Positions 1,406 through 61,680 of a DNA stretch of 64,000 nucleotides are shown here, piece by piece; positions within the stretch are counted from its first letter, which is position 1; each line of letters opens with the position of its first letter. The position numbers and the translations under genes are program-made. The stretch is from Candidatus Omnitrophota bacterium (GTDB taxonomy: Bacteria; Omnitrophota; Gorgyraeia; Zapsychrales; Zapsychraceae): NCBI GenBank assembly GCA_015233405.1, contig JADFXT010000005.1:10210-74209 (forward strand), in the 5' to 3' direction. The notes beneath the pieces are model-generated. The model saw nothing but the letters and a program-made list of their open reading frames with translations, searched no databases and was not told the DNA's origin.

Positions 1406-4400
1406 ATGAGTTTATCAGAAATATCGATCAAGCGCCCCGTCTTTGCCTGGATGCTAATGGCTGGCCTCATCGTCTTCGGTGGAATTTGTTTTATGCGTAT
1501 GGGCATCAGCCAGCTTCCTGACGTGGACTATCCTGTTGTTTCGGTCAATATCCGTCTGGAAGGCGCAGCCCCAGAGGTCATCGAGACCTCCGTCGTCGAT
1601 ATCATCGAAAATGCGGTCATGAGTATTCAGAGCATTCGTAGCGTCACATCGCGATCGGAAAATAGCGAAGGGACTGTGACAATTGAATTTGAACTCAACC
1701 GTGATATCGATTTAGCCGTCCAGGATGTCCAGGCCAAAATCGCTTCGGTTTTACAGAAATTGCCTAAGGACATCACATCCCCAACTATCCGCAAGTCCAA
1801 TCCCGAAGATCAGCCGATCATGCTGCTCACCCTTGAGAGCGATACGTATCCTTTAAAAGATTTAATGGCCTATACGAATGACCGTATTAAAGACCAGTTT
1901 TCGACGGTAGCAGGCGTTGGTGACATTACTTTAGGCGGTTATCGAGACCCTAATTTGCGCATTTGGGTGGATGAGAAGGCCCTTAGTACTTATGAGCTTT
2001 CGGTCAATGATGTTATCAATACTATTCAAAATGAACACATGGAAACTCCGGCAGGCCAGTTAGAGGAGGGGACACGGCAATTAAATGTTCGGACCATGGG
2101 TGAGGCTAAGACCATCGAGGAGTTTGGCGATCTCGTTATTAATCAGCGCGGTGGGCAACCGAATTATATTCCGATGCATTTAAATCAAGTCGCATACATT
2201 GAAGAAGGTTTGGCTGACGCTTTAAGGATTAGCCGTGCTATGGGGACGCCGTGTGTGGCGCTTAATATTCTCAAACAGCGCGGATCTAACGCTGTTGCGG
2301 TGGCTAAAGCGGTACGGGCCAAGATCGTCGAGGTTCAGCAAGGACTCCCTCAGGGGATGAAGTTAAGCGTCAATTTTGATAGCACCCGATATATTGAACA
2401 AGCGGTGCACGAGCTTAATTTTACTTTGCTTTTGTCAGCGCTTTTGACTGGACTAGTGTGCTGGATGTTTCTGGGATCTTGGAAATCCACACTTAATGTG
2501 CTGTTGGCCATTCCAACGTCGGTTGTCGGAACTTTTATCGTTCTTAATTTTGCGGGGTTCACTTTAAACACTTTTACTTTGCTTGGATTAAGTCTTTCTA
2601 TTGGGATTGTCGTCGATGATGCCATCATGGTTTTGGAAAATATCGTTCGCCATCAGGAAAAAGGTCGAGGCAGGATTTCAGCAGCTTTAAAGGGATCTAA
2701 GGAAATCACCTTTGCGGCCATGGCGGCGACCATATCCGTCGTCGCTATTTTTTTACCGGTTGCGTTTATGAGCGGTGTTATCGGAAAATTTTTCTTTCAG
2801 TTCGGCGTGACCATTACGGTCGCCGTCTTATTGTCTCTGTTGGAAGCTTTAACATTGACTCCCATGCGCTGCTCGCAATTCGTTGATATTGGAAAACGCA
2901 CGACGAGATTTGGCCAAGGAGTCGAATGGTTTATGGATAAGTCAAGAGATCTTTATGCTGGTTCTTTGAAAGCAGCCTTGAATCACCGTGTCCTGGTAAT
3001 TGTCACCGCGATGATTGTTTTTGCGCTTAGTTTTTCTGCCCTAAAGGCGCTCAATAAAGAATTCATTCCTTCTGAGGACCAAAGTCGGTTTAATGTCCGT
3101 CTTAAGACTCCGGTCGGTTCGTCTCTCTCTTATTCCGACGGAAAATTTCGCGAGGTTGAAAAATTTCTATCACAACGTTCGGAGGTCGATCGATACGTTT
3201 TGCAGGTAGGAGGAGGTTCTCCAGGAGATTCCAATAGCGGTTCTGTCCTTGTCACGATGAAAGATCCGGGTAAACGAGGGATCGATCTTTCCGTTGGACA
3301 CGAGCTAAGCCAGCAAGAATTTATGGGCGTCTGCCGTAAACAGTTCAATAAAATTCCCGACGTGCGTGCCGTTATCCAGGACCTTTCTACGCGGGCCTTT
3401 ACTTCTTCCCGGGGTTTTCCGGTTGAGTTTACCATTCAGGGTCCGGATTGGGACCAACTGGCGGAGTATTCGAGGCAAATGGTCGACGGACTAGATAAGA
3501 CTGGTCTTGTGACTGATCTTGATACCAATTATGCTCTCGGCCAGCCGGAGCTCCACGTGGTGCCCGACCGCAAGAAGGCGCCTCAGTATGGCGTGAGTGT
3601 TGCTAGCATCTCCCAAGTGGTCGAGTCGATGATCGGTGGAGTTTTGGTAGGCACTTATGAAAAAGGTGGCCATCGTTACGACATTCGTCTGAAACTTAAA
3701 GAGAGTAAAATAGACCCGCGCACAAAAGTTAACAGTCTTTTTATCCGCAATAATCGCGGCGAGTTGACACCACTTTCTAATCTCGTCACAATGGAAGAGA
3801 AAAAATCCATGGTCGAGATTTCACGAAGCAATCGAGAGCGCTCCATTACGGTTTATGCCAACGTTAAGACGGGGCAATCTCAGCAAAAAGCCTTGCTGGC
3901 CGTGCAAGATATCGCCAAACATATTTTACCACCGGATTATCATATTGCCTTGACTGGAAGTTCACAGACATTTGCGGAATCTCTTAAGAGCCTTATCTGG
4001 GTTTTGTTGCTTGGTATCGTCGTTGCGTATATGGTTTTAGCATCACAGTTTAACAGTTTTATTGATCCCATTTCTGTTTTGATGGCTCTCCCTTTTAGCA
4101 TTTCCGGTGCGCTGGTGGCGTTATTTCTCGCTCACCGATCTATTAATATCTACAGCGTTATCGGTCTCATCTTATTGATGGGCATTGTTAAGAAAAACTC
4201 GATCCTCCTAGTAGATTTTACAAATCAAGTCAGAGAACGAGGAGAAGCTTCTGTCCATAAAGCGCTTTTGACGGCATGTCCAATTCGCCTACGGCCAATT
4301 TTGATGACGTCGGTCGCTACCATTGCCGGCGCTGTGCCAGCGGCTTTAGCCATTGGCCCTGGCGCCGAAAGTCGCATCCCGATGGCCATTGCCGTTATTG

Positions 4401-24116: not shown

Positions 24117-25891
24117 AAATGTTTATGCGTCCAGGCATTAACAAGAAGCGCGGCAGTATCCTGCTGATAACTTTGATATTGATGATCACTTTGACTGTTT
24201 TTGTCACAAGCTTTTTATCAGGCGTTCTTTATGATAACAGGACCGTTGACAATCAAACCACGAACAGCAAAGCTCTATATTTGGCGGAAGCAGGTTTGAA
24301 TAAGGCTATGTGGTATTTGCTTCATACCGCGCCCAATGGAACTACTAATGGTTCCTGGCGAACAACCGCTTACCCGGCGGCATCCGGCGCTGGAGCTACA
24401 GATCCTAAAAAAGAATCTTTTGCTGACGGAACTTATACGATGTGGGTTCAGGATTATGGAGATGGTTCGATTTTAATTACGGCGAGTGGGACTTATAATA
24501 ATTTTACAAAGACGATTCATCAGCGAGTTAATCTTTCTTCTGCAAGTGGCGAGTTAGTAGGCTGGTGGAAATTTGATGAAGGGGAAGACGAAACAGCAAC
24601 GGATTCAAGCGGGAATAGTTATGACGGCACATTTGTTCACAGCCCCCAATGGATTTCCGGAAGAATTAAAAATGCGCTTAGCTTTAATGGGAGCAATTCT
24701 TATGTCAATTTACCAAACGCGCCGAATGTTAGTAATTCTTCGCTTACGATCACGGCTTGGGCGCAGCGTAACGGACGGGGAAGCGGCCCTGATGATATCA
24801 TTTTTTGTCAGGGAGAAAACAACCATAATAAGATGATCAGTTTTGGTTTTTATGGTGATACTTTTGGTGTTAACTGTAGTTGGGATGATTTACATAGTAC
24901 TACTTCCTACCCGGATACTGATTGGCATCTTTGGGCTCTTACTTGGGATGCAAACAACAATCAACGGCGCATTTACCGGGATGGAGTTATTGTAGCTAAT
25001 GATGTGGCAGATGGAAATTATCAAGGTCAAGGCAATACTTATATCGGGGCTAGATTGGATAATGGGAGCTATTTTAATGGAGCTATTGATGACGTCCGTG
25101 TTTATAACACGGCCTTATCCACCGCACAAATTAAAGGGATTTACCTGGATGGAGACCCGAACTTAGTCGCGCATTGGACATTTGACGACGGGACTGCTAC
25201 GGATTCCATGGGCAATTATGATGGAACACTGAACAACGGCCCGACAAAGGTTTCCGGAAAAGTTGGCAGCGGGGCTTTAAGTTTTACTAGCTCAAATCAA
25301 AACGTATCTATCCCTACAGATATAATAGCTTTAAACAATGCCTCTAAATTTAGTATTACAGGATGGGCAAATATAAAAGGTGATTGGGGAAACGGCGGGA
25401 ACGCAATTTTCGGAAAACTTAGCGATTATTGGCATGATATAGATTTAATGGTAAGCAGTAACCATGATTGGTTCATGCAAGTAGATAATAGCGCTGATCA
25501 CGACAGCACGGGATTTGTTAATAATTCGAGTTTAGATAATCAATGGGCTTTTGTTTCAGGAGTCTTTGATGGCACAAAAGATGGAGATGACAATCGCTTA
25601 AAATTGTATTTAAATGGTGCACCGCAATCATTATCTTTTAACAATACGCCTTTTCCAGCGACAAGTCCAAATATTCCTGGCGCTCCACAAGCAATAGGAT
25701 CATATGCTGGGAGCGGTTGGAATTTTAACGGATATCTAGATGATATTCGTATTTACAGTAAGCCATTATCCGACGATGAAGTTACAAGTCTTTACAGTCT
25801 TGGAAACATTGGCGGTAGCGGCAACCGCAAGTTGACCGTAGTGCCCCAATCTTGGGCGGAATGTGGGACAGCATCTTTTGTTTGTCCATAA
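24113..25891 (+). CDS. large GspK/PilX-like minor pilin carrying two LamG (concanavalin A-like lectin) domains
   Basis: ATGA start/stop overlap with the upstream pilin. N-terminus KKRGSILLITLILMITLTVFV (pseudopilin-like, no Glu5). ALYLAEAGLNKA PilX_N-like helix. Two LamG_3-type modules starting LVGWWKFDEGEDETATDSSGNSYDGT and LVAHWTFDDGTATDSMGNYDGT, each ending with an IDD(V/I)R(V/I)Y motif. Confidence 0.8.
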   Translation: MKMFMRPGINKKRGSILLITLILMITLTVFVTSFLSGVLYDNRTVDNQTTNSKALYLAEAGLNKAMWYLLHTAPNGTTNGSWRTTAYPAASGAGATDPKKESFADGTYTMWVQDYGDGSILITASGTYNNFTKTIHQRVNLSSASGELVGWWKFDEGEDETATDSSGNSYDGTFVHSPQWISGRIKNALSFNGSNSYVNLPNAPNVSNSSLTITAWAQRNGRGSGPDDIIFCQGENNHNKMISFGFYGDTFGVNCSWDDLHSTTSYPDTDWHLWALTWDANNNQRRIYRDGVIVANDVADGNYQGQGNTYIGARLDNGSYFNGAIDDVRVYNTALSTAQIKGIYLDGDPNLVAHWTFDDGTATDSMGNYDGTLNNGPTKVSGKVGSGALSFTSSNQNVSIPTDIIALNNASKFSITGWANIKGDWGNGGNAIFGKLSDYWHDIDLMVSSNHDWFMQVDNSADHDSTGFVNNSSLDNQWAFVSGVFDGTKDGDDNRLKLYLNGAPQSLSFNNTPFPATSPNIPGAPQAIGSYAGSGWNFNGYLDDIRIYSKPLSDDEVTSLYSLGNIGGSGNRKLTVVPQSWAECGTASFVCP

Positions 25892-32253: not shown

Positions 32254-32266
32254 AAAAAGAGGTTTT

Positions 32267-32395
32267 ATGCTAAAGAAAATTTTTTATTTTATTGTGGCTG
32301 GAGTATTTTTAACCTCGATTTACGGTTGTTCTTTAATAGGAACCGCTTTAAGCGCCGCGGCGGGTTACGCAATTTATAAGGCAACCAGCAAATAA
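32267..32395 (+). CDS. small lipoprotein
   Basis: 42-aa ORF from the internal Met of track ORF 32189..32395. Lipobox SIYG-C. Confidence 0.45.
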   Translation: MLKKIFYFIVAGVFLTSIYGCSLIGTALSAAAGYAIYKATSK

Positions 32396-32469
32396 TTGAT
32401 AACTATCATTATGCTGATCTAGAATCTGCAATCGCATATTAATATGAAATAGAGTGTTGTTTTTTTGCT

Positions 32470-33354
32470 ATGAAAAAAAACTTTTTATTGGTAATGGTGT
32501 TTTTCTTTATGCTTACACGTTTATCATCGGCTTTAGAATGGAAAAAAATACATAATGAGGCTGATGCTACAACTCTTCAGAAGGCTCAAAAATCCGTTCT
32601 CAAGAATCCCAATTCGATACCTGATCTGTACCGACTAAGCTTGGTTGATTTGAACCTTCACAAGGATAATGACGCCAAGGGTATATATACTAAAATATTA
32701 AGTTTGGATCCAAAATCATTGGAGGCGCTCTGGGGACAAGCCGAGGTTCTCCGTCGACAGGATAAACTTGAAGAAAGCAATAAAATCCTCAATAAAATCA
32801 TAAAATCCAACCCAAAATTTTCTCCAGCGCTGATTTCTCTGGCGTATATTCAGTACACTCTTTTGAAATTTGATGATGCGGCACAATTGGCCAAAAAAGT
32901 GATCGATCAAGGGAAAGATAATGTGGACTTGAGTAATTATACTCGCGCCCATCTCATTTTAGCTGGCAGTAAGGGAATGATCGCTAGTCGCGGAGGCTTA
33001 TTCTCCAAATTTATTAATGGAACAGCTGTTTTGCCTCTTTTAAAAAAAGCACAGAAGCTTCAGCCTGATTCGCCTGCGGTTTTGTTTGGGCTAGGGAGTT
33101 ATTATTTTCTGGCACCTCATATTGCCGGCGGAAATCTGGATAAAGCTATTTACTATCTTGAGTTAGCTGTCAAAGCAGACCCGCTTTTTGCTGATGCTCA
33201 TGTGCGATTAGCGCAAGCTTTTAAAACCAAAGGGGATATTAAGAAATACCAGGAGCATTTAAACAAAGCTATTCAGATCGATCCTTTAAATGCTTTGGCT
33301 CTTGATGAGAAGAATAAAAAATGCAAATTTAACTGTTCTACGGTTCACGAATAA
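32470..33354 (+). CDS. secreted TPR-repeat protein
   Basis: Signal peptide. Repeated 34-aa A/L/Y/P patterns (ALWGQAEVLRRQDKLEES, AHVRLAQAFKTKGDIKKY). Confidence 0.75.
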   Translation: MKKNFLLVMVFFFMLTRLSSALEWKKIHNEADATTLQKAQKSVLKNPNSIPDLYRLSLVDLNLHKDNDAKGIYTKILSLDPKSLEALWGQAEVLRRQDKLEESNKILNKIIKSNPKFSPALISLAYIQYTLLKFDDAAQLAKKVIDQGKDNVDLSNYTRAHLILAGSKGMIASRGGLFSKFINGTAVLPLLKKAQKLQPDSPAVLFGLGSYYFLAPHIAGGNLDKAIYYLELAVKADPLFADAHVRLAQAFKTKGDIKKYQEHLNKAIQIDPLNALALDEKNKKCKFNCSTVHE

Positions 33355-52529: not shown

Positions 52530-55500
52530 ATGATAGTCACATTTAAGAAAAGACAGTTGAATTTATTTACTAAATCCATCTCGTTTCTTCTTCTCGCGAC
52601 TTTTCTATCCACAACCATCATTCCTCAGGGCTATGCCCAGAGCATAGCACTGCCGACTCCGGGCGCGATGGTGACACCGTCCATGGCGTATGTGCCAGCG
52701 CTTTTAAAAGGCATGACGCTACATAAGGACAATCCATTTCAGTTTGATTTTATTATCGATAACGGCCAAAGCGGTCTTCAAGGCGACGCTCTTAAAAATG
52801 AATCCAAACGCTTAGTCAAATATTTCCTCGCATCCATGACCGTTCCGCAGAATGACCTTTGGGTTAACTTGTCTCCGGCAGAAAAGAATCGCATTGTCCC
52901 CGACGCATTAGGCAAAACTGAATTAGGCCAGGATTTATTAGCCCAGGATTACATTTTAAAGCAATTGACTGCCACATTGATGTATCCGGAAGGGGAGTTA
53001 GGCAAAAAATTTTGGGATCGCATATATAAGGAAGCAAAAGAAAAGTACGGCGTAACCGATATTCCGACGGACACATTTAACAAAGTCTGGATTTTACCCG
53101 AATCCGCGACGATCTATGAAAATGGTGCCACGGTGTATGTTGTTGATGCGAAATTGAAGGTGATGTTGGATCAAGACTACGCAGCAATGCCCCAAAAGGG
53201 TGTCATTGCGAGGAACGAAGTGACGAAGCAATCTTTTTTAAAAGGGATTGCTTCGCAAAAAGACGCTCGCAATGACACAAATATGATGAATTCTCAGATC
53301 ATTCGTCAAATCATCCTCCCTGAAATAGAAAAAGAAGTAAACACCGGTAAAAACTTCGCCCCACTTCGCCAAATCTATCATTCGCTCATTTTAGCCAAGT
53401 GGTACAAAGAGAAGGTCCGCAACAGCATTCTTTCCTCGTCGTATATCAATAAAAATAAAGTTACAGGCATTGATGAAAATAATCCGAAAGCCAAGGAAGA
53501 AATTTACGCGCAGTACATGGAAGCCTACAAAAAGGGTGTCTATAGCTATATGAAGGAAGAGTATGACCCCAAGACCCAGCAGATCACACCTAAAAAATAT
53601 TTCTCCGGCGGGTTTAAGGATGCGGATTTGGCCATGAAAACCGCCAATGCTGCGGATATTGCCAACTCTGTCGTCGGGCAGGATTTCGCCATGTCGGTTG
53701 ATATTGCAGTAAAAGACCGACAAAATATAAGAAACATTAAGCCTTTTAACGAAGAAATTCAGCAAACCGCCAAACGATTTGGTATTAATATCTCTGATAA
53801 AACTAAAATTACTGTTTTTATCGGCGAGACCCATATTGAAAATGGCTATTATTACAACTTATTTAATCAAGTTATGAAAGAAACGCTTGGCCTCGACATT
53901 GTTTATCTTCCTTATTCCATAATAAAAGGAGACACGCAAAGAATTGCTTATATCAAACAAGAGCTGGCCAATAATCCACAGCTGGTCGGCGCTGTTGTGA
54001 CTAGCCCATTTAAAGGGAAAGATGGATTCTTTGAGCCAAAAGATAATCAAATTGGCGCCATTAATTATATTGTCAAAGACACAACCGGAAAACTTACTCG
54101 TACAGCAATCGACGGAGATGCATGGCTAAAAGGATTAATTAAAGACCTGCATAGTAATATTGATTTTAAAGACAAAACCGTTGTCATTATCGGTAGCGGT
54201 GGCGCTGCCAGAGAATTGGCAGAAATTCTTAATGGCAAAGGAATCAAAAGAATCATTTTTACCGACAAAGATGCGGAGCAAAGCGATAGTCTTAAATCTA
54301 TGATTAAAGATTTGGGCGTTGATTATACTCCGGAATTCTTTTTATCCACGGATAGCGAATATTCTTTAAAATTACACCAAGCCTTTCAAGAAGCAGACCT
54401 CATCGTTAATTCGACAGGCATTGGACGCGAAAAAACTCTTGGGCAAGATCCAGTCGATAGCCAACTCTTTCAAGGCATCAAGCCCGACGTCATTATCTCT
54501 GATCTTATCAGTAACACTTTCACACAGTTTTTAATCGATGCAAAGACCGCTGGAGCTAAACACACATTCTTTGGCCGTTCCATGTTTATTAATGGCATGG
54601 TGGACTTCATGCAAGGATGGATCAAACAAAACTTTCCCGAAAAAAAAGTCAGCGATGATAAGTTATTTAACCTGATTTCTGCCTGGCTGTATAAAAAAGA
54701 TCACCCACAAGTAAATATCACAAATCAAAAAGGGCAGAAGCTTTCTGATATTAAAGCCGCTGTTTTCGATTTCGACGATACGATTGTTTTCATGGAAGAG
54801 AATCCTGTTTCCGTAATTCGGACGAATCTGCACATAAAATCGTTGATAAGTATTTGGTATGGACCTAATCAGCCATTAACACCGTCGAAAATAAAAGAAG
54901 CGCAAGATTTCTTAAGAGATATCCAAGGCCAAACCGCGGAAGAATTCCTTGAAACAGCTATAAAAATAAAAGGCCATAATCTTAGCGGGAAAACAGTTTC
55001 GGAAATGATTGCGATACGCGAACAAAAAACCGCTGAAGCGCTTCCGGATTTGATAAAGCAATGGAAAAAGAATCTTCCGACAAGCATCTTCGTTCCCGGC
55101 GTAGTAAATTTTATTAAGGAATTGCATAAATCCAAAGTGCCCGTTTATGTTGTGACCGGAAATTCGTATTTGGAAAAATATAATCTCTTAGATGTTTTAG
55201 GCTTATCGAACTATGTGACCGGAGTTTATGACGCTGAATCCAAAGAATTTATGCATCAAGATGGTCAAAAAGAACTGATCGAAAATTTTAACAAAAATGA
55301 TGTCCTTAAGAGGATCCGTGACGACTACGCATCTGTTGGGGGCAAAATTTTGATCGCCGGCGATGGGGACAGAGAATCAGAAGTAGCCCAAGATCTTCAA
55401 GAACCTTTTATGGCCGTTGCCCATACAGCAGAGCGCGTCGAACATTTCAACAATTTAAAATCGGATATGGTTCTTGCCGGCCCGGACTTTTTTAACAATC

Positions 55501-56078
55501 TGACGATCACGCCAGCAGCTGACAACGCTCTTGTCACTAATGGCAGGCCTGCGCTCATCGGCATCGACATTGGAGGGACAAAGGTCGAAGTGGCAGTTGT
55601 CACTCAGGATGAACACGGGAATTTTACGAAAGTTCTATTTTCTCAAAAAATAGCAACGTCAGAAATTAAAGGAGACCCGGCAAAATTCTTCGATAAACTT
55701 GCAAAATTTATCCGCGGGATTAAAACGGAAGCCCAAGAGAAATATAGTATCAAGATGCTTGATGTCGTCGGCGTTGGGTCTCCGGGACGATTTATCAAGA
55801 ACGCTAACAATGAAGAAGTGATCGCAGACGGGTCCGCTGAAAATTTAGGAGACGCTCCTGGGGCTTTTAATGGCGTCAATTGCCAAAAAGAGCTCTTTGA
55901 TCGCCTGGGGGGAACCGTTGTTGTCCATAATGATGCCATTGCCCAGATGATGTATGCCTATCAAAACTTATTAGAAAATTTTCCCGATATTGCAAAAACC
56001 TTCCTGAATAAAAACATTGCTTACATTGGTCCGGGAACCGGTCTTGGCGGCGGATTTGCATTTGTCGACGAAAACTGA
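52530..56078 (+). CDS. giant modular protein, part 1: signal peptide + conserved exported N-domain + AroE-like + HAD-like + N-terminal half of an actin-fold sugar kinase
   Basis: AGGAGG RBS. Signal (IIPQGYAQS). AroE-like motifs VVTSPFKG, GAINYIV, IDGD, IGSGGAARE. HAD motifs FDFDDT, VVTGNS, GDGDRE. Kinase motifs LIGIDIGGTKVEV, VGSPGRF, VHNDAIAQ, GPGTGLGGG. The ORF ends inside the kinase domain. Confidence 0.85.
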   Translation: MIVTFKKRQLNLFTKSISFLLLATFLSTTIIPQGYAQSIALPTPGAMVTPSMAYVPALLKGMTLHKDNPFQFDFIIDNGQSGLQGDALKNESKRLVKYFLASMTVPQNDLWVNLSPAEKNRIVPDALGKTELGQDLLAQDYILKQLTATLMYPEGELGKKFWDRIYKEAKEKYGVTDIPTDTFNKVWILPESATIYENGATVYVVDAKLKVMLDQDYAAMPQKGVIARNEVTKQSFLKGIASQKDARNDTNMMNSQIIRQIILPEIEKEVNTGKNFAPLRQIYHSLILAKWYKEKVRNSILSSSYINKNKVTGIDENNPKAKEEIYAQYMEAYKKGVYSYMKEEYDPKTQQITPKKYFSGGFKDADLAMKTANAADIANSVVGQDFAMSVDIAVKDRQNIRNIKPFNEEIQQTAKRFGINISDKTKITVFIGETHIENGYYYNLFNQVMKETLGLDIVYLPYSIIKGDTQRIAYIKQELANNPQLVGAVVTSPFKGKDGFFEPKDNQIGAINYIVKDTTGKLTRTAIDGDAWLKGLIKDLHSNIDFKDKTVVIIGSGGAARELAEILNGKGIKRIIFTDKDAEQSDSLKSMIKDLGVDYTPEFFLSTDSEYSLKLHQAFQEADLIVNSTGIGREKTLGQDPVDSQLFQGIKPDVIISDLISNTFTQFLIDAKTAGAKHTFFGRSMFINGMVDFMQGWIKQNFPEKKVSDDKLFNLISAWLYKKDHPQVNITNQKGQKLSDIKAAVFDFDDTIVFMEENPVSVIRTNLHIKSLISIWYGPNQPLTPSKIKEAQDFLRDIQGQTAEEFLETAIKIKGHNLSGKTVSEMIAIREQKTAEALPDLIKQWKKNLPTSIFVPGVVNFIKELHKSKVPVYVVTGNSYLEKYNLLDVLGLSNYVTGVYDAESKEFMHQDGQKELIENFNKNDVLKRIRDDYASVGGKILIAGDGDRESEVAQDLQEPFMAVAHTAERVEHFNNLKSDMVLAGPDFFNNLTITPAADNALVTNGRPALIGIDIGGTKVEVAVVTQDEHGNFTKVLFSQKIATSEIKGDPAKFFDKLAKFIRGIKTEAQEKYSIKMLDVVGVGSPGRFIKNANNEEVIADGSAENLGDAPGAFNGVNCQKELFDRLGGTVVVHNDAIAQMMYAYQNLLENFPDIAKTFLNKNIAYIGPGTGLGGGFAFVDEN
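53201..53279. repeat. TGTCAT-terminated nested palindromic element lying inside the coding sequence
   Basis: Outer arms gtgtcattgcgag (53201-53213) / ctcgcaatgacac (53267-53279). Inner arms cgaagcaatc (53225-53234) / gattgcttcg (53247-53256). Translates as VIARNEVTKQSFLKGIASQKDARNDT. Confidence 0.75.
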
Positions 56079-59000
56079 CGGACATATTTATGACATGAAG
56101 ATCCTTGATAAACCGGTTACCCTTGCTTTGAACTGGCAGGGACAAAAAATGGAAATTCCTTTATTTGAAATGGCACAAGACTTATTCTCCGGCGGCAATG
56201 GGATCGGAGAAACTCTCATGATGAGGATCAATCAAAAAGCCCTAGATATGGGATTGGAAAAACCTTTTTCCTATCAGGAAGGGTTGAATGAAAAAGAAAT
56301 TATTGGTTTTATGAAAGCATCAGGAGGAAAACTTTTGAGCGATATTCTTGTTGCAGGAAAAGCTGATTCTCGCTATGAAATCGCTCAACAGATAGCCGCA
56401 TTTGAAGGTCAAATGTTAGCTCTCATTATTGAACATATTTATAACGGCGATATTCGGAAATGGAACCCGTCGGCAGATTGGTCACAAGAGGATAGGGATT
56501 TTGTCAAAGGGACCAAGAATTTCATTTTGGGCGGGAGCGTTACGAAAGGGTCATTCGGAACCATTGTTGAAAAAACAGCCCGGGAAGAATTAGCCGCCAA
56601 AGGATTGGTCGATGTTCAATTGATCCTTCCGAAGATGGATACCGCTAAAGCCGGAGTTTTGGGTGCAGCCGGATTTGTCAACGATGTTGCCAAAATGAAA
56701 ACAACAGATTCTGATTCAGCGATGGTAGCAGCCCAAGGCGTTTTGGTGAATGGCGTTGTAGTCGATAAAAATTTAGCGCTCGAAGCCATAAATTTATTAG
56801 AAAAGCCCGTCAAAGAACGTTTTATCTATAAAATCCCAACAGCAATTTTTAGACGCTATCCTTACCTTGCTCCGGTTTTAGATTTAACTTTGCCGGCCAA
56901 GGAAACAGAATCCAAGAAACGAGAAACCGCGCGGCTTTTTATCGAGAAATTCATCCGTGCCAAGCATCCGAATTCCGTAAAATCTGTTTCCACAGAAACG
57001 GAATCCTTGGCTCTTCAAATGGAACGCGTCAGCCCTACGGATTTTGGCCTGCGATTTTCTTTTGATCCGTTTGGATTAAGAGTCAAACGGCTTGCCAAAG
57101 AATTAGCGGCATTCTTAAAAGAAGAGAAAGCTCGTATAGAAAAAATCATGCTGCCCAATATTTATCAAGTCCCGTCAGCTCAAGCCACCCGAGCCATCGA
57201 TATGGATTTAAGAAGAATCAAATCAGAGCTTATCGAACAAACTCCAGAAGAATTTGAAAGCGACTTAGCTGCTTTAAAAAATCAAACACTTTCTTATGAA
57301 CAACGTAATACCAAGATGTATCCTTTGATCCTTAAAAGCAAAGGAGAGAGGCTAAACAGAGTAAAGAGCACTCTTCTGGAAATCTTTCGTACAGAAGCCG
57401 GCATCATGCGCGAACGGGCGTGGAACGGTTTACGTTTTATGGGCATCCCGGGAGAAGAAATTCAAGAAACCCCCGCGACTTCCGTTACTACAGACAAGGC
57501 GATGATATCAATCACAGCAGGCCTTATTGGATTTGGTGTTATAGCGACGTATATCGGCATTCGAAAATTTTTCCGTTACCACACCATTAACGGTGCCATG
57601 TCCATGTTAGAAAATCCTTTGTCAGAACGGTCATTAGAGAAAGCGAACCATTTCTTAAGGAACCAACAGGATTGGCCAGGTACCCCAGACACCAAGGAAA
57701 GACTTTTTAACGGATATATGAACGTCTTAAAAAATTCTATGCATATAGGGTCCATGATCGAAGCCATTGAACAATTGGCCAATTTAGGTATCAGGCAGAC
57801 TGAAGCAATTGATACCATTGCCGATTACTTAGGCGGGTTACGAAAAAGAGACGCCCAATTTTTGGCTTCATTGAAGAAAAAATATCCTCCACAAAATGAC
57901 TTTAGAGATTATTTGGCCGACTGGATGTATAAATTGGATTTTAAGTTTTATTTTAGCATAGGCGCAAATACGCGTTTTGCGGCAAGGGCCGCTTTAGTCA
58001 AGCTCAAAGCTCCAGAAGAGAAATATGTTCCCGGGTATTTCGCCGCCGTGAAGGCCGATATCAAAGAAAATATGCTTAACGGCAAAAAACACATCGCCGA
58101 AAACGCTATGGCCGAATTAAGGGAATTGAACTCCGACAAGGCCAAAAAATTACGTTACGATGGGTATTTGGAAATCCTCAAAACCCCGGAAATGGCGGAT
58201 TATGTTCTCCAGGAAGCCTTGGAACAACTCGAGGTCCTGGGACATCCTCAGGCAAAAACTTTTAAGAAATTTTATGAAAAACTAGGGGCTAGAACCTTTG
58301 GACAAATTTTTGTTACCGGCACAATATATGAAAAAAGATTTCAAGAGGCTTGGGAAATCCAAAACTCAGGATACGAGTTTGAAATAATTTATAATGAAGA
58401 AAAGAGCCATTTGAAGCAATACACGGTTGATCCCGGAGATGGGGGCGGCCTGCTGTTAAGGGAAAGGAAAATCATTGACGTGCCGGCGCATCCGATTGAA
58501 ATCGTTAAAACAGAAAAATTGCCGGACGCTTTACCATCGACAGACAAGGCGATGCTAGTTCGTTGGACAACGGATTGGTATATTGAAAAAGGGCTGAATA
58601 TCAATATTGTTTCCAAGGAAAACACGAAAATCCATATCAAAACAATTAAAATCCTTACCCATCGCTATCTCAAAAGTCCGAAAAATAGGGAGATAATAAA
58701 ACAAGCACTGTTCAATATGCTGACCGATTTCTCAAAAGAGGCGAGAGAAGCTACCAGAGCCGCGTTGGCTAAACTCAATATCTCAAAAGTAGAAATTATT
58801 GCTGCGAATATGCACGTCCTCAAAACTGTTTGGTTTGATCCGGCCATCCCGGAAGCTATTGAACAGTTGAAACAGTTAGAGTCAGACGACACAAGAGAAC
58901 CGCTGATCAACGGTTATCTGGAGGTCCTGAAAACTACGTCTTCCACTGAGTTGGCAATCCAAGGGACGGTTGAACGGTTGAGGCACTTAAGATCGGAGGA

Positions 59001-59850
59001 CACAAAAGAACGAATTATTAACGGGTACCTGGAAGTCCTCAAAACTCCTGGGAACGGGAGTGCCATTGAAGAAACCATTAAAGAATTGGGTGACTTGAAA
59101 GACCCAAGGGCAATACCATTGATACTTAAATATTTTTCCATATACCCGACGATAGCAACGATTGCTTTAACTAAACTTCATGTTCCCCCAAAAACACTCA
59201 TTACCAAAAACATGAACGTCCTGAAAACCCCATTGGAGTCTTATATTCTCCAACAAGCGATTGAACAGTTAAGACAATTAAAATCGGACGATACAAGAGA
59301 ACTGTTTATTACCGGTTATCTGGACGTCATGAAAACTTCTGACTGGTCTGCCTCCATTAAAGAAGCCATTCAACAGTTAGCTGCGCTGGGACATCCTCAA
59401 GTTAAAATTTTCCAAGAAGTCAGTAACAGGATATCTTCTTCTCCTATCCCTGGAGAAACATTCGGCCTATTTTTTAGGCAGGCCTTGGACATCCGGTTGT
59501 CAGGGTGCGATTTCAAGATTCCTGAGTATTCCAATCCCTGGATTTATTATCGAAGAAATGACCTTGATAATCCGGTCATTGTCTCAATCGGGGCAGTCGA
59601 CAACGCGCTGGTGACCAAGAAAAACGTCGGTGGTATTGACATGAACAACATTAATTTAAAAGGCGATGGGAAGGGGACGTTCACTGCGTTTACGTTCCAG
59701 TTCGACTTAAAGGTAATGGAACAATTCAAAGATGTGCCCGTCGATAACCTTTCTCCGGTGATTATCAATATCGTGCCGATTCCAAGCATTCTGCCGCTTC
59801 TTGGACTTAAAGAAGATACGACGGAAAAACTAGCAAAAGCGGAAAATTAA
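56017..59850 (+). CDS. giant modular protein, part 2 (+1 frame): C-terminal half of the sugar kinase + linker + TM helix + HEAT-like repeats + C-terminal GGIDMN module
   Basis: Kinase C-half ILGGSVTKGSFG...AKAGVLGAAGF. TM MISITAGLIGFGVIATYIGI. Repeated NGYLEVLKT...AIEQL(x)xL units. The end is VGGIDMNNINLKGDG...IVPIPSILPLLGLKE. The Met at 56017 is probably not the real start (see findings). Confidence 0.8.
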   Translation: MLTLVREPVLAADLHLSTKTDGHIYDMKILDKPVTLALNWQGQKMEIPLFEMAQDLFSGGNGIGETLMMRINQKALDMGLEKPFSYQEGLNEKEIIGFMKASGGKLLSDILVAGKADSRYEIAQQIAAFEGQMLALIIEHIYNGDIRKWNPSADWSQEDRDFVKGTKNFILGGSVTKGSFGTIVEKTAREELAAKGLVDVQLILPKMDTAKAGVLGAAGFVNDVAKMKTTDSDSAMVAAQGVLVNGVVVDKNLALEAINLLEKPVKERFIYKIPTAIFRRYPYLAPVLDLTLPAKETESKKRETARLFIEKFIRAKHPNSVKSVSTETESLALQMERVSPTDFGLRFSFDPFGLRVKRLAKELAAFLKEEKARIEKIMLPNIYQVPSAQATRAIDMDLRRIKSELIEQTPEEFESDLAALKNQTLSYEQRNTKMYPLILKSKGERLNRVKSTLLEIFRTEAGIMRERAWNGLRFMGIPGEEIQETPATSVTTDKAMISITAGLIGFGVIATYIGIRKFFRYHTINGAMSMLENPLSERSLEKANHFLRNQQDWPGTPDTKERLFNGYMNVLKNSMHIGSMIEAIEQLANLGIRQTEAIDTIADYLGGLRKRDAQFLASLKKKYPPQNDFRDYLADWMYKLDFKFYFSIGANTRFAARAALVKLKAPEEKYVPGYFAAVKADIKENMLNGKKHIAENAMAELRELNSDKAKKLRYDGYLEILKTPEMADYVLQEALEQLEVLGHPQAKTFKKFYEKLGARTFGQIFVTGTIYEKRFQEAWEIQNSGYEFEIIYNEEKSHLKQYTVDPGDGGGLLLRERKIIDVPAHPIEIVKTEKLPDALPSTDKAMLVRWTTDWYIEKGLNINIVSKENTKIHIKTIKILTHRYLKSPKNREIIKQALFNMLTDFSKEAREATRAALAKLNISKVEIIAANMHVLKTVWFDPAIPEAIEQLKQLESDDTREPLINGYLEVLKTTSSTELAIQGTVERLRHLRSEDTKERIINGYLEVLKTPGNGSAIEETIKELGDLKDPRAIPLILKYFSIYPTIATIALTKLHVPPKTLITKNMNVLKTPLESYILQQAIEQLRQLKSDDTRELFITGYLDVMKTSDWSASIKEAIQQLAALGHPQVKIFQEVSNRISSSPIPGETFGLFFRQALDIRLSGCDFKIPEYSNPWIYYRRNDLDNPVIVSIGAVDNALVTKKNVGGIDMNNINLKGDGKGTFTAFTFQFDLKVMEQFKDVPVDNLSPVIINIVPIPSILPLLGLKEDTTEKLAKAEN
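58855..59337 (+). repeat. three diverged 81-nt coding repeats (HEAT-like unit AIEQLxxLxSxDTxExxINGYLEVLKT)
   Basis: Units at 58855-58935, 58966-59046 and 59257-59337 align at the DNA level without gaps, with many identical stretches (attgaacagtt, acaagagaac, ggttatctgga, gaaaact). Confidence 0.7.
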
Positions 59851-59881
59851 TCGTTTGATCCTAAAAATATTTTATAAAATC

Positions 59882-59914
59882 AGGGGCTGAGTCTTCAGCC
59901 CCTTTTAATTTTAT
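59882..59914 (+). terminator. rho-independent terminator of the giant gene
   Basis: Stem ggggctga / tcagcccc (59883-59890 / 59895-59902), loop gtct, then ttttaatttt. Confidence 0.8.
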
Positions 59915-59974
59915 CGACGGAGAAACGAAGAAATAAACCATTTCTAAAAAAGATAAATATTTTTTGCCGGCACC

Positions 59975-60003
59975 TTGTCGAGAAGCAAATCATATGCTAT
60001 TCT
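59975..60003 (+). promoter_or_regulatory. candidate sigma70-type promoter for the riboswitch leader
   Basis: TTGTCG (59975-59980), 17-nt spacer, TATTCT (59998-60003). It sits about 10 nt upstream of the aptamer. Confidence 0.35.
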
Positions 60004-60013
60004 TGTAATAGAA

Positions 60014-60104
60014 TTTGGTAAAGGTAAACTACTCGAAAGAGTAGGGCGCAAAGCCGTGAACCTAAAACCTTCTGGAGGAAGGGAATGGTTGTCTGGCTGC
60101 CGAA
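60014..60104 (+). promoter_or_regulatory. c-di-GMP-I (GEMM-I) riboswitch aptamer
   Basis: Core CTACTC-GAAA-GAGTAG-GGCGCAAAGCC-GTGAA-CCTAAAACC closely parallels the V. cholerae Vc2 core CCAUUC-GAAA-GAGUGG-GACGCAAAGCC-UCCGG-CCUAAACC (recalled from memory). GAAA tetraloop hairpin 60029-60044. Receptor-bearing hairpin gcc/aacc/ccttc...gaagg/ggtt/ggc at 60053-60097. Possible P1 tttgg/ccgaa (60014-18 / 60100-04). Confidence 0.8.
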
Positions 60105-60126
60105 GCGGAGGCTTCGTTAAACATAT

Positions 60127-60157
60127 CGCGCCCCTTTACTAGAGGCGCGTTTTTATT
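60127..60157 (+). terminator. intrinsic terminator forming the riboswitch expression platform
   Basis: Stem cgcgcc/ggcgcg (60127-60132 / 60144-60149) plus 2 further bp, then a T5 run at 60150-60154. The 5' arm gcgccc (60128-33) is complementary to aptamer core gggcgc (60044-49). Confidence 0.7.
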
Positions 60158-60385
60158 AGTTGCCTTCCATTATGATGGAAAAGGCAACTAGAAGACCCTT
60201 TGAGATCCTAAAATCTATTCAAGGACTCAAAGGGTAAAAAGTATGGGGGAGTAAGCATATAACCATTTGAGCTTAAGAAGTGTAATGAAAAAGCTCGATG
60301 GTCTAGAGAAAGGGGTTGTAAGTAGGGGGAACTCTAACAGATAAACTCCCAGGTGAGGTGGCCCCCTGCCTCACCTTTCCTGGGG
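60157..60385 (+). other. array of four strong hairpins in the rtcB leader (unclassified structured RNA or palindromic repeat units)
   Basis: Hairpin A 60157-60190 (14 bp). B 60195-60235 (10+4 bp, contains CCTAAAA). C 60262-60302 (5+6 bp). D 60346-60385 (8-bp core aggtgagg/cctcacct with C5 loop). G5 tracts at 60245-49 and 60325-29 are complementary to the D loop. Confidence 0.5.
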
Positions 60386-60501
60386 TGTTTGGCATATGAT
60401 GTAGGAAAATGGTGGACACTGTCGTTTTTCATAAATATACTACATTCATGTGTTAGGCATCCCAGGCCGGATTTTCCTGCCTGTCGTTATCAAAAACATC
60501 C

Positions 60502-61680
60502 ATGAGCTTTCAACTTATCCACAATATTCCTGTCTGGGGCGAACCCATTGACGAGGCGGTTAATCAACTTATCAACTGCGCTAAGACTGCAGACAAATGC
60601 GCTTTAATGGCGGACCATCATCCTGGCTATGCCGTGCCTATTGGCGGCGTTGTGGCGTATAGGGATAAGATCAGCCCGTCGGGTGTTGGCTATGACATTG
60701 CCTGCGGTAATAAAGCCGTACGCCTTGATATTCCTGCCGACGAAGTTAAAGATCACATCAAAGAGATCATGACCGACATTTTTGAAACGCTCTCATTCGG
60801 CATTGGCCTAAAAAATAATGAACGCGTGGATCATCCATTATTTCACGATGACGCGGCATGGCAGCTTGGTGTCGCCAAAGAACTTAAATTAAAAAAACTG
60901 GCGCAGGAACAATTGGGCACCATCGGTTCAGGGAATCATTACGTTGATTTATTTACCGACGAAGAAAACAGGGTTTGGCTTGGCATCCATTTTGGGTCGC
61001 GCGGGCTTGGCCATAGATTAGCCAAATATTTTATCCAAAAAGGCGGCGGGCGAGATGGCATGAACGTAGACCCGGTGGTGCTTAATGTGAAAAGCGATCT
61101 CGCGCAAGATTATCTTTTAGGTATGAAACTCGCCGGGCGTTATGCCTATGCGGGACGAGATTGGGTTTGTAAACGCATTGCTCAATTATTGCAGGCAAAT
61201 ATCTTGGAAGAAGTCCATAACCATCATAATTACGCTTGGGCCGAAGAACATAATGGAGAAAAACTTTGGGTCATCCGCAAAGGCGCGACCCCGGCGTTTC
61301 CGGGACAGAAAGGTTTTATCGGCGGGAGCATGGGAGATATTTCCGTGATCGTCGAAGGAATTGACTCGGATGAAAGCCGGCGGGCCATGTATTCGACCGT
61401 CCACGGTGCCGGACGCCTGATTTCACGGACAGCCGCAGCCGGAAGGAAAAGAGGCCGTTATCGTATGGGCGGAAAAATTACGCGCGAGATGATGAAAGAG
61501 TGGGTGGATTCTAAAAATGTTACGCTTATCGGCGCAGGAACAGATGAGTCTCCGCATTGTTATAAAAGATTACCGGAAGTCTTGAAATATCATGAAAAAA
61601 CCATTAGAATTCTCCATACGCTTACCCCGATTGGGGTAGCAATGGCAGGAGAAGACGTTTTCGACCCATTTAAAGATTAA
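60502..61680 (+). CDS. rtcB: RNA ligase RtcB (3'-phosphate/5'-hydroxyl RNA-splicing ligase family)
   Basis: Motifs HHPGYAVPIGGV, GVGYDIACG, GSGNHY, FGSRGLGH, HNHHNYA, IRKGATPA, GGSMGD, VHGAGR. Confidence 0.93.
   Translation: MSFQLIHNIPVWGEPIDEAVNQLINCAKTADKCALMADHHPGYAVPIGGVVAYRDKISPSGVGYDIACGNKAVRLDIPADEVKDHIKEIMTDIFETLSFGIGLKNNERVDHPLFHDDAAWQLGVAKELKLKKLAQEQLGTIGSGNHYVDLFTDEENRVWLGIHFGSRGLGHRLAKYFIQKGGGRDGMNVDPVVLNVKSDLAQDYLLGMKLAGRYAYAGRDWVCKRIAQLLQANILEEVHNHHNYAWAEEHNGEKLWVIRKGATPAFPGQKGFIGGSMGDISVIVEGIDSDESRRAMYSTVHGAGRLISRTAAAGRKRGRYRMGGKITREMMKEWVDSKNVTLIGAGTDESPHCYKRLPEVLKYHEKTIRILHTLTPIGVAMAGEDVFDPFKD

Follow-up and report, generated by a model that had tools for sequence, protein, structure and literature searches.

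A densely folded region between a c-di-GMP-I riboswitch and the RNA ligase gene rtcB in a Candidatus Omnitrophota genome

In a 64,000-nt stretch of DNA from Candidatus Omnitrophota (the window), about 345 nt (60157-60501, + strand) lie between the terminator of a c-di-GMP-I riboswitch and rtcB. The dense folding of this region is far above chance and above the genomic background. We tentatively read it as the downstream part of an rtcB 5' leader of about 490 nt, specific to this lineage, gated by the riboswitch and with a role at the transcript level, a reading that we hold with slightly less than even confidence. Since nothing similar to the region was found elsewhere, it stands as a single-genome orphan, and its function can only be inferred.

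On the + strand, the region folds at -127.2 kcal/mol (z -5.97), and none of 100 shuffled sequences was as stable; against the genomic background, the GC-adjusted z was -4.97. The - strand reached -100.2 kcal/mol (z -3.84). Of 1061 sliding 345-nt windows, the six that ranked highest for structure all fell inside the intergenic gap between the riboswitch and rtcB, and the folding-energy density of this gap, -0.35 kcal/mol per nt, is the highest among gaps in the window. The gap measures 652 nt, more than any other stretch between called genes in the window, when the 1182-aa ORF at 52530-56078 is counted and the 1036-nt gap at 32254-33289 is set aside. The first-pass annotation of this DNA had described a dense, unclassified RNA structure with four hairpins, A to D. 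Folding recovered all four at the positions given there, and the density itself holds, strengthened by a fifth, larger and strand-specific hairpin (E, Table 1) that the earlier list omits. The predicted fold is a linear row of independent hairpins, A to E, without a multi-helix junction core, and A to D and the body of E have ensemble pair probabilities of 0.85-1.0.

Table 1. Features mapped in and around the riboswitch-rtcB gap, with positions counted from the first nucleotide of the window.
Feature	Positions	Strand	Evidence
c-di-GMP-I riboswitch aptamer	60013-60104	+	RF01051 at 67.7 bits (gathering score 35; E 4e-11)
Intrinsic terminator of the riboswitch (expression platform)	60127-60155	+	Stem and U5 read from the sequence, -12.6 kcal/mol
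Hairpin A	60157-60190	+	-16.6 kcal/mol, z -5.8 on both strands; pair probability 0.88-1.0
Hairpin B	60195-60235	+	-18.8 kcal/mol, z -4.7; pair probability 0.94-1.0
Hairpin C	60262-60302	+	-11.5 kcal/mol, z -3.9
G-rich linker GUAGGGGG, which may form a pseudoknot with the D loop CCCCCUGC (60362-60369)	60322-60329	+	Duplex prediction
Hairpin D, inner stem with C5 loop	60351-60376	+	Pair probability 0.85-1.0
Hairpin E	60379-60466	+	-40.9 kcal/mol, z -6.7 on the + strand; pair probability 0.99-1.0, closing pair 0.24
Possible internal rtcB promoter in the apical loop of E, with sigma-70-like hexamers TGGACA-17-TATACT	60413-60441	+	10 of 12 matches
A-rich translation-initiation region of rtcB, no Shine-Dalgarno (SD)	60482-60501	+	Mostly unpaired
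rtcB (392 aa)	60502-61680	+	PF01139, 229.9 bits

Hairpin A begins 1 nt past the U tract of the terminator and consists of 14 bp (9 + 5), a 4-nt UAUG loop and a 2-nt bulge on its 3' strand. Hairpins B and C are both 41 nt long; B has 10 + 4 bp and contains GAUCCUAAAA, with the CCTAAAA string that had been pointed out earlier. The stem of C is kin to that of B (ACCAUUUGAG vs ACCCUUUGAG), with one compensatory difference, C-G to A-U, and this single within-sequence pair is the only compensatory change seen for the region, which yielded no homologue and no covariation. Without mismatch, the B/C stem string is found in these two hairpins only, and likeness among the five hairpins is limited to this pair. 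The perfect palindromes A, B and C are equally stable on either strand and thus carry no strand information.

This symmetry would also suit a DNA-level origin, in which the palindromes are the relic of a REP/MITE-like or terminator-targeting element that was inserted past the terminator and does not itself function as RNA. A single 41-nt unit present twice could account for B and C, and the region is absent in relatives. REP/BIME palindromes and MITEs, which occur in many copies per genome, share with the region the arrangement of several strong palindromic hairpins in an intergenic row, here with B and C related. However, blastn, repeat finding and two covariance models detected no second copy of A to E in the 64-kb window, where the other structured sites are single terminators, and the earlier proposal of stacked palindromic repeats like those elsewhere in the window finds no support within these 64 kb. 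No match to the region was found by blastn in plasmids and phages. When viral contigs and JGI metagenomes were scanned for the patterns of hairpins A, B, D and E, only unrelated chance palindromes turned up, including two chance matches to the D pattern in the JGI metagenomes. Hairpin E, moreover, folds on the + strand only and depends on wobble pairs.

The same reading could invoke a group II intron. Domain V of these introns, 34 nt long, is built from 9 bp, 5 bp, a tetraloop and a 2-nt 3' bulge, a geometry shared by hairpin A; geometry is all that agrees, as A has neither the catalytic triad nor a GNRA loop. The start of the block just past a U tract matches the known target of group IIC introns, which insert just after intrinsic terminators (PMC9481103). 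Unlike such introns, the block is too short, and A lies at its 5' end, while domain V is placed near the 3' end. A group II intron was rejected, with no GTG[CT]G / GUGYG 5' end, no AGC/CGC triad, no GNRA loop and no Rfam match in the region. Taken as a whole, an origin from DNA-level palindromes appears quite unlikely.

The GAWCCTAAAA motif occurs four times in the window, three of them inside the riboswitch-rtcB gap, against 0.56 expected. This clustering is compatible with hairpins A and B being what is left of a tandem riboswitch, a second c-di-GMP-I aptamer that has decayed: the two form a hairpin, a short junction and a hairpin with GAUCCUAAAA on its 5' strand, resembling the real receptor hairpin (GAACCUAAAA), with 73% identity over 22 nt. 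Yet cmscan at E <= 10 gives one aptamer only, the loop of A is UAUG rather than GNRA, and B holds the 5' half of the tetraloop receptor while its 3' half is missing. A tandem aptamer was therefore rejected, and its decayed form, which would leave C, D and E unexplained, is highly improbable.

Hairpins D and E compete for the same sequence. Folded alone, D (60346-60385) reaches -22.3 kcal/mol (z -2.9). Its outer stem has the string CCUGGG in common with E, and the ensemble favours E, so that the outer stem of D has a pair probability of 0.0 and only the inner stem is left. E combines a 26-bp stem, in which six pairs are G·U (nine when the apical part is included), with one bulge and an apical region of about 36 nt. 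All six non-Watson-Crick positions of the stem are G·U, with no A·C or other mismatch, and the - strand yields only -18.3 kcal/mol (z -2.0). Because E is predicted to fold on the + strand only, via G·U pairs, it speaks for an RNA of the sense strand and against a palindrome at the DNA level.

Two other explanations for E were considered and rejected. An integron attC site was suggested by its 3' arm, where GTTAGGC resembles the R' core; read directly, however, the 5' arm is GTTTGGC and not the required GCCTAAC. An invertible promoter is implausible: the arms of E flank a promoter-like site, but they are about 36-46 nt apart and match via G·U only. None of the hairpins A to E was called as an intrinsic terminator, that is, a G+C-rich stem with a U tract, and a scan of 59700-60700 found no intrinsic terminator-like site between 60156 and the rtcB start.

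Runs of five or more G (22) or C (6) are rare in the 64 kb. The first-pass annotation had correctly located G5 at 60245-49 and 60325-29 and C5 in the D loop (60362-66). The best loop-linker pairing joins GUAGGGGG (60322-29) to CCCCCUGC (60362-69) through 8 bp at -16.4 kcal/mol, and a pseudoknot between the C5 loop of D and GUAGGGGG is possible according to this prediction. A chain of alternative pairings (CCCAGG/CCUGGG/CCCAGG/CCUGCC, plus the 3' arm of B with the 5' arm of C) runs through the region. Together with the concentration of rare G5 and C5 runs, these pairings could denote a second sensor, a new aptamer or protein-binding RNA pseudoknotted via the C5 loop that would combine a further signal with c-di-GMP, as tandem riboswitches do; tandem arrangements with c-di-GMP-I aptamers are known (PMC9481103). 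We consider this rather improbable. The hairpins are long regular helices, not junction-rich aptamer cores, and neither a terminator nor occlusion of the start site would serve as expression platform. The pseudoknot is a prediction, the G/C-run statistic is post hoc, and no conservation was found in 83 rtcB loci, the nearest with an RtcB 75-76% identical.

Upstream of the region, the riboswitch aptamer carries GCAAAGCC as its ligand-contact stretch, which is the canonical form; the GGC-variant model scored 58.7, just under its cut-off of 59. The RF01051 score, the terminator and a competing antiterminator together identify a c-di-GMP-I riboswitch with a downstream expression platform. A consensus scan flags the hairpin of the terminator on the - strand only. 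The 5' arm of the terminator has an alternative partner in the 5' strand of the aptamer (60014-24 and 60045-49 with 60128-43). In the absence of ligand, the minimum free energy structure is the antiterminator form, at -55.2 kcal/mol, compared with -42.4 kcal/mol for the form with aptamer and terminator, and an OFF switch responding to c-di-GMP is therefore predicted. The sequence GGAGG is found between the aptamer and the terminator, at 60107-11. An Rfam scan of 60 other rtcB loci found no c-di-GMP riboswitch in any of them.

Downstream, the RtcB protein is 100% identical to an NCBI protein of a 'Candidatus Omnitrophica bacterium' MAG. The genes flanking the region encode a protein without Pfam domains, RtcB, a PLP-dependent enzyme and a flavin reductase. 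The earlier remark that rtcB lacks an obvious SD was confirmed by a duplex energy of +1.2 kcal/mol with the anti-SD. Since 37% of the 51 called genes in the window also have none, such a start is ordinary here. Across the initiation region, the mean probability of being unpaired stays at 0.57-0.62 both with and without the leader, and the fact that the start stays mainly open in both cases argues against translational occlusion by the hairpins, which was rejected. Coding explanations for the region fared no better. The ORF search bore out the earlier statement that no ORF of at least 60 aa is present, the ORFs of 25-50 aa begin at poor start codons, lack an SD and encode sequences implausible for small proteins or type I toxins, and blastx against all ORFs of related loci gave no match indicating a pseudogene remnant.

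The sigma-70-like hexamers within E, 60 nt upstream of the AUG, raise the issue of where transcription of rtcB begins. If this promoter were used, rtcB would have a short leader of its own and A to D would lie outside its main mRNA. The riboswitch could then gate a separate ncRNA, an sRNA of about 250-350 nt comprising A to D and ending at or near D, which is G+C-rich and followed by UUU. There are parallels for RNA genes beside rtcB: Y RNAs are ncRNA genes of the rsr-yrlBA-rtcBA operon (PMC4201824, PMC7790460), and in Bryobacterales loci rtcB is directly preceded by tRNA genes. Nevertheless, shuffles of the same 1-kb region yield 2.0 such promoter sites, so that the 10/12 match is at chance frequency and not significant. 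Only three U follow the stem of D, which was not called a terminator, and a transcript starting near 60448 would preclude hairpin E, the element with the clearest signature at the RNA level. A separate ncRNA thus seems unlikely.

Known RNA families were searched with the 4227 models of Rfam 15, using gathering thresholds for the whole window and a permissive E <= 10 for 59850-60650. In the first scan, c-di-GMP-I was the sole family; in the second, on either strand, the matches apart from the aptamer were noise of at most 19 bits, far under their cut-offs. For the region itself, this agrees with the earlier failure to match it by eye to known families. ARAGORN detected no tRNA, tmRNA or tRNA-like gene in the window.

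Y RNAs (YrlA/YrlB) belong to the rsr-yrlBA-rtcBA RNA-repair operon (PMC4201824, PMC7790460). They measure 80-130 nt, with a Ro60-binding stem, a tRNA-like T arm and a GNCGAAN0-1G motif, and adjoin rsr (PMC4201824). The Omnitrophota region resembles them as structured RNA adjoining rtcB on the same strand, but all of these Y-RNA features are absent from it. A bacterial Y RNA was rejected, with neither CGAA nor GTTCRA in the region on either strand and no T arm; rsr/Ro60 is absent among the flanking genes, and six further upstream genes have no TROVE domain.

The chemistry of RtcB and the dense structure are circumstantial hints of a self-cleaving or self-splicing ribozyme, with RtcB joining its 2',3'-cyclic-phosphate and 5'-OH products. 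Splicing could, in principle, bring the GGAGG upstream of the terminator near the SD-less start codon. One precedent exists in Clostridioides difficile, where the tandem-riboswitch review PMC9481103, citing Lee et al. 2010, describes a c-di-GMP-II aptamer controlling a self-splicing ribozyme of group I. The two systems share a cyclic-di-GMP aptamer, a few hundred nucleotides of structured RNA and a gene with a poor ribosome-binding site. They differ in that the aptamer here is of class I, has its own complete terminator and is followed by no group I match. That review takes an intact terminator after the aptamer to indicate that a ribozyme downstream does not act as expression platform (PMC9481103). 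No intron-family match appeared at E <= 10, and the linear hairpin series has no P3-P9-type core, so that a group I intron was rejected; the small self-cleaving ribozymes (hammerhead, twister, twister-sister, pistol, hatchet, HDV-like and hairpin) likewise had no family match at that threshold. With no Rfam match accounting for the region and a string of independent hairpins instead of a multi-helix junction core, a ribozyme is extremely unlikely. The ideas of a ribozyme, an RtcB substrate and, within the 64 kb, a repeat element found no support.

Relatives of the region were sought in 83 rtcB loci, 80 from GTDB genomes and three from the closest metagenomic RtcB proteins, by blastn, nhmmer and two single-sequence covariance models, R1 (D+E) and R2 (A+B+C). 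No counterpart was found upstream of rtcB in these loci, the best foreign matches having E ~10. The first-pass annotation had taken a lack of conservation upstream of rtcB in relatives as a refutation, and no conservation was seen. The power of this comparison is low: the databases searched contain no close relative of the genome, the closest RtcB shares 75-76% identity, and the adjacent 1277-aa protein is without any homologue among 5.8 billion proteins. The gap upstream of rtcB, measured in 77 related loci, has a median of 79 nt and a maximum of 576, all below 652 nt. It spans 0-128 nt in Omnitrophota relatives and 3-12 nt in the closest ones, where rtcB has no leader at all. In Acidobacteriaceae, an unrelated structured element ending in a terminator is conserved upstream of rtcB.

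We return to the reading of the region as part of the rtcB leader. The region, the riboswitch and rtcB are adjacent on the same strand, with no terminator-like site from 60156 to rtcB, which makes one continuous transcript from the riboswitch into rtcB plausible and would imply that the region is co-transcribed with the gene. Transcription would begin upstream of the aptamer. With c-di-GMP bound, the aptamer would keep its 5' strand, the terminator would form and transcription would halt. Without ligand, the 5' strand of the aptamer would pair with the 5' arm of the terminator and the polymerase would continue through A to E into rtcB, placing the gene under the OFF logic of the riboswitch. 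The hairpins would then fold as independent modules on the sense-strand RNA, possibly with the pseudoknot between the D loop and GUAGGGGG. As they are not predicted to cover the start codon, their role would most likely be at the transcript level. They may compact the long untranslated leader, limiting Rho loading and attack by single-strand RNases, and hairpin E, 36 nt upstream of the AUG, may be a double-stranded determinant of processing or stability of the RNase III-substrate type. Of the earlier hypothesis of a structured leader or ncRNA acting as substrate or regulator of RtcB, the structured sense-strand leader before rtcB is retained, and nothing was found in favour of the part on a substrate or regulator of RtcB, with no self-cleaving ribozyme, tRNA-like or Y-RNA signature in the region.

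Such a generic role in stability or processing would have precedents by analogy. The rnc and pnp leaders of E. coli contain hairpins processed by RNase III and share with hairpin E a regular stem of more than 20 bp in a 5' UTR upstream of an accessible start. Here, however, four more hairpins precede E, there is no homology and the likeness to E is one of geometry. For the overall layout, the closest parallel is the leader of flgB in C. difficile, about 500 nt long, which has the riboswitch Cd1 and a spacer with an invertible DNA switch between inverted repeats. In both arrangements, a c-di-GMP-I aptamer and an intrinsic terminator form an OFF switch, a predicted one here, and several hundred untranslated nucleotides separate it from the first gene. 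In the Omnitrophota locus, by contrast, the spacer is a row of RNA hairpins, there is no recombinase context, the loop of E is about 36 nt and the gene encodes an RNA ligase rather than a flagellar protein.

A bolder version, which we regard as very doubtful, would make the leader a new class of compact, pseudoknotted regulatory RNA coupling rtcB to a second input, either RNA damage or a ligand. In the RNA-damage form, a stress endoribonuclease would cut the leader, and RtcB would re-seal or sense it. If true, a second-input leader combined with c-di-GMP control would do with RNA alone what the RtcR/CARF damage sensor does.

The structured spacer will gain value only if further Omnitrophota genomes or transcript data make it a family. 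A full-text literature search found no paper joining a c-di-GMP riboswitch and RtcB. If the leader and the riboswitch do control rtcB, this would be the first link found between c-di-GMP signalling and the RtcB RNA-repair ligase. In enterobacteria, rtcB is regulated via the protein sensor RtcR (PMC7790460); by contrast, if the leader reading is true, rtcB would be regulable purely at the RNA level in Omnitrophota, a phylum without experimental knowledge.

The 345 nt between the c-di-GMP-I riboswitch terminator and rtcB (60157-60501) folded at -127.2 kcal/mol, with a z-score relative to shuffles (z) of -5.97, and none of 100 dinucleotide shuffles was equally stable. This bears out the dense structure described in the first-pass annotation, which had placed four hairpins (A to D) at positions that proved exact, each of them significant on its own. 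Against a genome background of 1061 sliding 345-nt windows, the GC-adjusted z was -4.97; all six of the most structured windows come from this single intergenic gap, whose energy density is the highest among all gaps in the window. The other strongly structured sites are single gene-end terminators. A fifth, larger element, hairpin E, had been overlooked. It has an ensemble probability of ~1 (closing pair, 0.24) and takes up the CCUGGG assigned to the outer stem of hairpin D, of which only the inner stem (60351-60376) stands.

Features of the rtcB locus (window positions)
Feature	Position	Strand	Details
1277-aa ORF	56017-59850	+	no Pfam domain
Terminator of the 1277-aa ORF	59882-59903	+	
c-di-GMP-I aptamer	60013-60104	+	RF01051, 67.7 bits (gathering score 35)
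Intrinsic terminator	60127-60155	+	stem and U5 read from the sequence
Hairpin A	60157-60190	+	-16.6 kcal/mol, z -5.8
Hairpin B	60195-60235	+	-18.8 kcal/mol, z -4.7
Hairpin C	60262-60302	+	-11.5 kcal/mol, z -3.9
Hairpin D	60346-60385	+	-22.3 kcal/mol, z -2.9
Hairpin E	60379-60466	+	26-bp stem, -40.9 kcal/mol, z -6.7
rtcB	60502-61680	+	PF01139, 229.9 bits
PLP-dependent enzyme and flavin reductase	downstream of rtcB		

Hairpins B and C are related (both 41 nt, with stems beginning ACC[C/A]UUUGAG and one C-G to A-U pair swap), which is the only internal relationship among the hairpins. The CCTAAAA string previously pointed out in hairpin B belongs to a 10-mer, GA[T/A]CCTAAAA, at 60204-60213. Four copies of it occur on the + strand of the window (0.56 expected), three of them in this intergenic region: just past the upstream stop codon (59857-59866), in the riboswitch receptor hairpin (60058-60067) and in hairpin B; the other lies at 24401-24410. 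The G5 and C5 tracts proposed to form pseudoknots had been located correctly and are rare (22 G5+ and 6 C5+ runs per 64 kb). Their complementarity was confirmed, while the pseudoknot itself is a prediction, the best pair being GUAGGGGG (60322-60329) with CCCCCUGC (60362-60369), 8 bp at -16.4 kcal/mol.

Hairpins A to C are perfect palindromes that fold equally on either strand. For hairpin E, the - strand reached only -18.3 kcal/mol (z -2.0), compared to -40.9 kcal/mol on the + strand, and for the whole region z was -3.84 on the - strand. Of the 26 pairs in the stem of E, 20 are Watson-Crick and 6 are G·U; mismatches of A·C or any other kind are absent, and all 6 G·U pairs become C·A mismatches on the opposite strand. 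In a decaying DNA palindrome, transitions yielding G·U and A·C should be equally frequent on each strand, under which six of six wobbles in one direction would arise about once in 64 (one-sided). A DNA-level or mobile relic is, in our assessment, distinctly unlikely: plasmids and phages showed no similarity to the region, and pattern scans for the hairpins in viral and JGI metagenome contigs returned chance palindromes only. Stacked palindromic repeat units, the other origin suggested initially, are disfavoured on the 64-kb window, within which neither seed-and-extend repeat finding nor single-sequence covariance models of D+E (R1) and A+B+C (R2) detected a second copy of any hairpin. On these folding models, the structure is real, stands out statistically and is specific to the sense strand; it is read most simply as a functional RNA structure formed on the rtcB sense strand.

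A permissive Rfam scan of 59850-60650 (E <= 10, both strands), as the first-pass annotation had recommended after matching no known RNA by eye, returned the riboswitch and otherwise noise of at most 19 bits. Within these limits there was no match to an intron, self-cleaving ribozyme, T-box, 6S, Y RNA or RNase P, and ARAGORN found no tRNA-like gene in the window. Hairpin A was rejected as a group II domain V: its geometry fits (9 + 5 bp, tetraloop, 2-nt 3' bulge), but neither the catalytic triad nor a GNRA loop is present, and its position is at the wrong end. Y RNAs adjoin rtcB and are a precedent for an rtcB-linked ncRNA (PMC4201824, PMC7790460). The region has none of their defining features; the motif GNCGAAN0-1G and the T arm (GTTCRA), both YrlA features (PMC4201824), are absent from it, as is the group II GUGYG. 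The likeness to the c-di-GMP-II/group I allosteric ribozyme is superficial, the region failing every testable feature, and an uninterrupted terminator after the aptamer argues against a downstream ribozyme as expression platform (PMC9481103). A ribozyme or RtcB substrate, as first proposed, is extremely improbable. We regard a second sensor as distinctly unlikely, an RNA-only damage or ligand sensor for rtcB as improbable and a decayed tandem aptamer as very improbable.

We compared 80 rtcB loci of GTDB species representatives, together with three contigs that carry the genes for the closest metagenomic RtcB proteins. No leader-like sequence or structure was detected in related rtcB loci by blastn, nhmmer, R1 or R2. 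Conservation upstream of rtcB, whose absence from relatives had been named beforehand as refuting, is thus lacking, in a test of little power: the 1277-aa protein has no homologue except itself among 5.8 billion proteins, indicating that no available genome is near enough to retain intergenic RNA. In the same protein set, the window RtcB matches, at 100% identity, an NCBI protein encoded on a 145,861-nt contig of a 'Candidatus Omnitrophica bacterium' MAG, with the next best at 75-76%. The gap before rtcB is 652 nt here versus a median of 79 and a maximum of 576 across 77 loci; it spans 0-128 nt in seven Omnitrophota relatives. Of the three closest metagenomic relatives, two have gaps of 12 and 3 nt, and in the third only 15 nt of contig precede rtcB. 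None of the 60 rtcB loci scanned with Rfam had a c-di-GMP riboswitch.

The rtcB homologues of Acidobacteriaceae/Terracidiphilus, Bryobacterales and Armatimonadota, which are 55-65% identical, lie within or beside large tRNA gene arrays (loci L024-L033, L035, L037, L038, L042, L043, L056, L058 and L065; rtcB near position 3001 in most), with as many as 29 tRNA genes in the surrounding ±3 kb, compared to 0 in the Omnitrophota window. tRNA-His and tRNA-Ala lie directly upstream of rtcB, on the same strand, in L033, L038, L042, L043 and L058. Acidobacteriaceae also have a conserved ~200-nt element that precedes rtcB by ~90-340 nt (alignment A4: L023, L024, L026, L028-L031, L035, L065). It folds into a long stem, for which RNAalifold shows some compensatory changes; a strong terminator (GAGCCCCTGGCCTGATGGTCAGGGGCTTTTT) closes it, ~90 nt ahead of the rtcB start codon, and Rfam gave no match at E <= 5. 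We take it as a candidate rtcB leader or sRNA with no relation to the one in the window.

As initially observed, the region contains no ORF of at least 60 aa; shorter ORFs are not credible, and no pseudogene remnant was found. rtcB indeed lacks a Shine-Dalgarno sequence, which is unremarkable given that 37% of the 51 called genes in the window (longest-ORF starts) also lack one. The genes upstream provide no RNA-repair context. Two giant ORFs precede the locus, of 1182 aa (52530-56078) and 1277 aa, the latter with internal 83-nt coding repeats (58853-59337). Within the former, 53200-53279 folds into a long perfect hairpin of two nested stems, the outer of 13 bp and the inner of 14 bp (covering 100-nt windows down to -45.6 kcal/mol, z -5.4, in a sliding scan), which looks like a palindromic insertion in the coding region and shows no similarity to hairpins A-E.

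Without ligand, the minimum-energy fold of 60008-60160 (-55.2 kcal/mol) has the aptamer 5' strand (60014-60024, 60045-60049) paired with the terminator 5' arm and loop (60128-60143), versus -42.4 kcal/mol for the closed aptamer plus terminator, ligand binding not counted. This layout predicts an OFF switch, in which c-di-GMP binding would cause termination and read-through would occur at low c-di-GMP. On the GGC-variant model, the aptamer reached 58.7 bits against a cut-off of 59, yet the canonical GCAAAGCC is present; the consensus terminator scan called the 60127-60155 hairpin on the - strand only. It found no terminator-like site between 60156 and rtcB, so read-through transcripts should carry hairpins A-E together with rtcB. 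Alternatively, A-D could be a separate riboswitch-gated sRNA, with rtcB expressed from an internal promoter. A sigma-70-like site in the loop of E (TGGACA-17-TATACT, 60413-60441) would, if used, yield a short riboswitch-independent rtcB transcript; however, such a match is at chance frequency, hairpin E could not form in that transcript, and we consider this arrangement unlikely. The middle of E consists of two near-identical direct repeats, GGUGUUUGGCAU (60384-60395) and UGUGUUAGGCAU (60449-60460), which pair with each other through G·U wobbles only; as DNA, they are direct repeats around a promoter-like site and could thus conceivably bind a protein.

The start region (60482-60516) is mostly unpaired, both in folds that include the leader and in folds that omit it (mean P(unpaired) 0.57-0.62); therefore, gating of translation through occlusion by the hairpins is not predicted, and transcript-level roles remain. 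We tentatively favour a structured cis-leader of rtcB, giving it a little short of an even chance. Its hairpins may compact the ~490-nt untranslated leader, reducing Rho loading and attack by single-strand RNases, and the regular duplex of E may be a target of double-strand-specific RNases, by analogy with the rnc and pnp leaders, whose regular duplexes are processed by such enzymes. In C. difficile, flgB has a long leader behind a c-di-GMP-I OFF switch. A full-text literature search found no report of a c-di-GMP riboswitch paired with rtcB, and the pairing is unusual. The spacer is an orphan, for which a function can be suggested in generic terms only. As a putative structured mRNA leader, the element is a single-genome example outside every described family, and its closest counterparts in function would be RNase III-type leader hairpins and the long leaders that follow c-di-GMP-I OFF switches, as at flgB.
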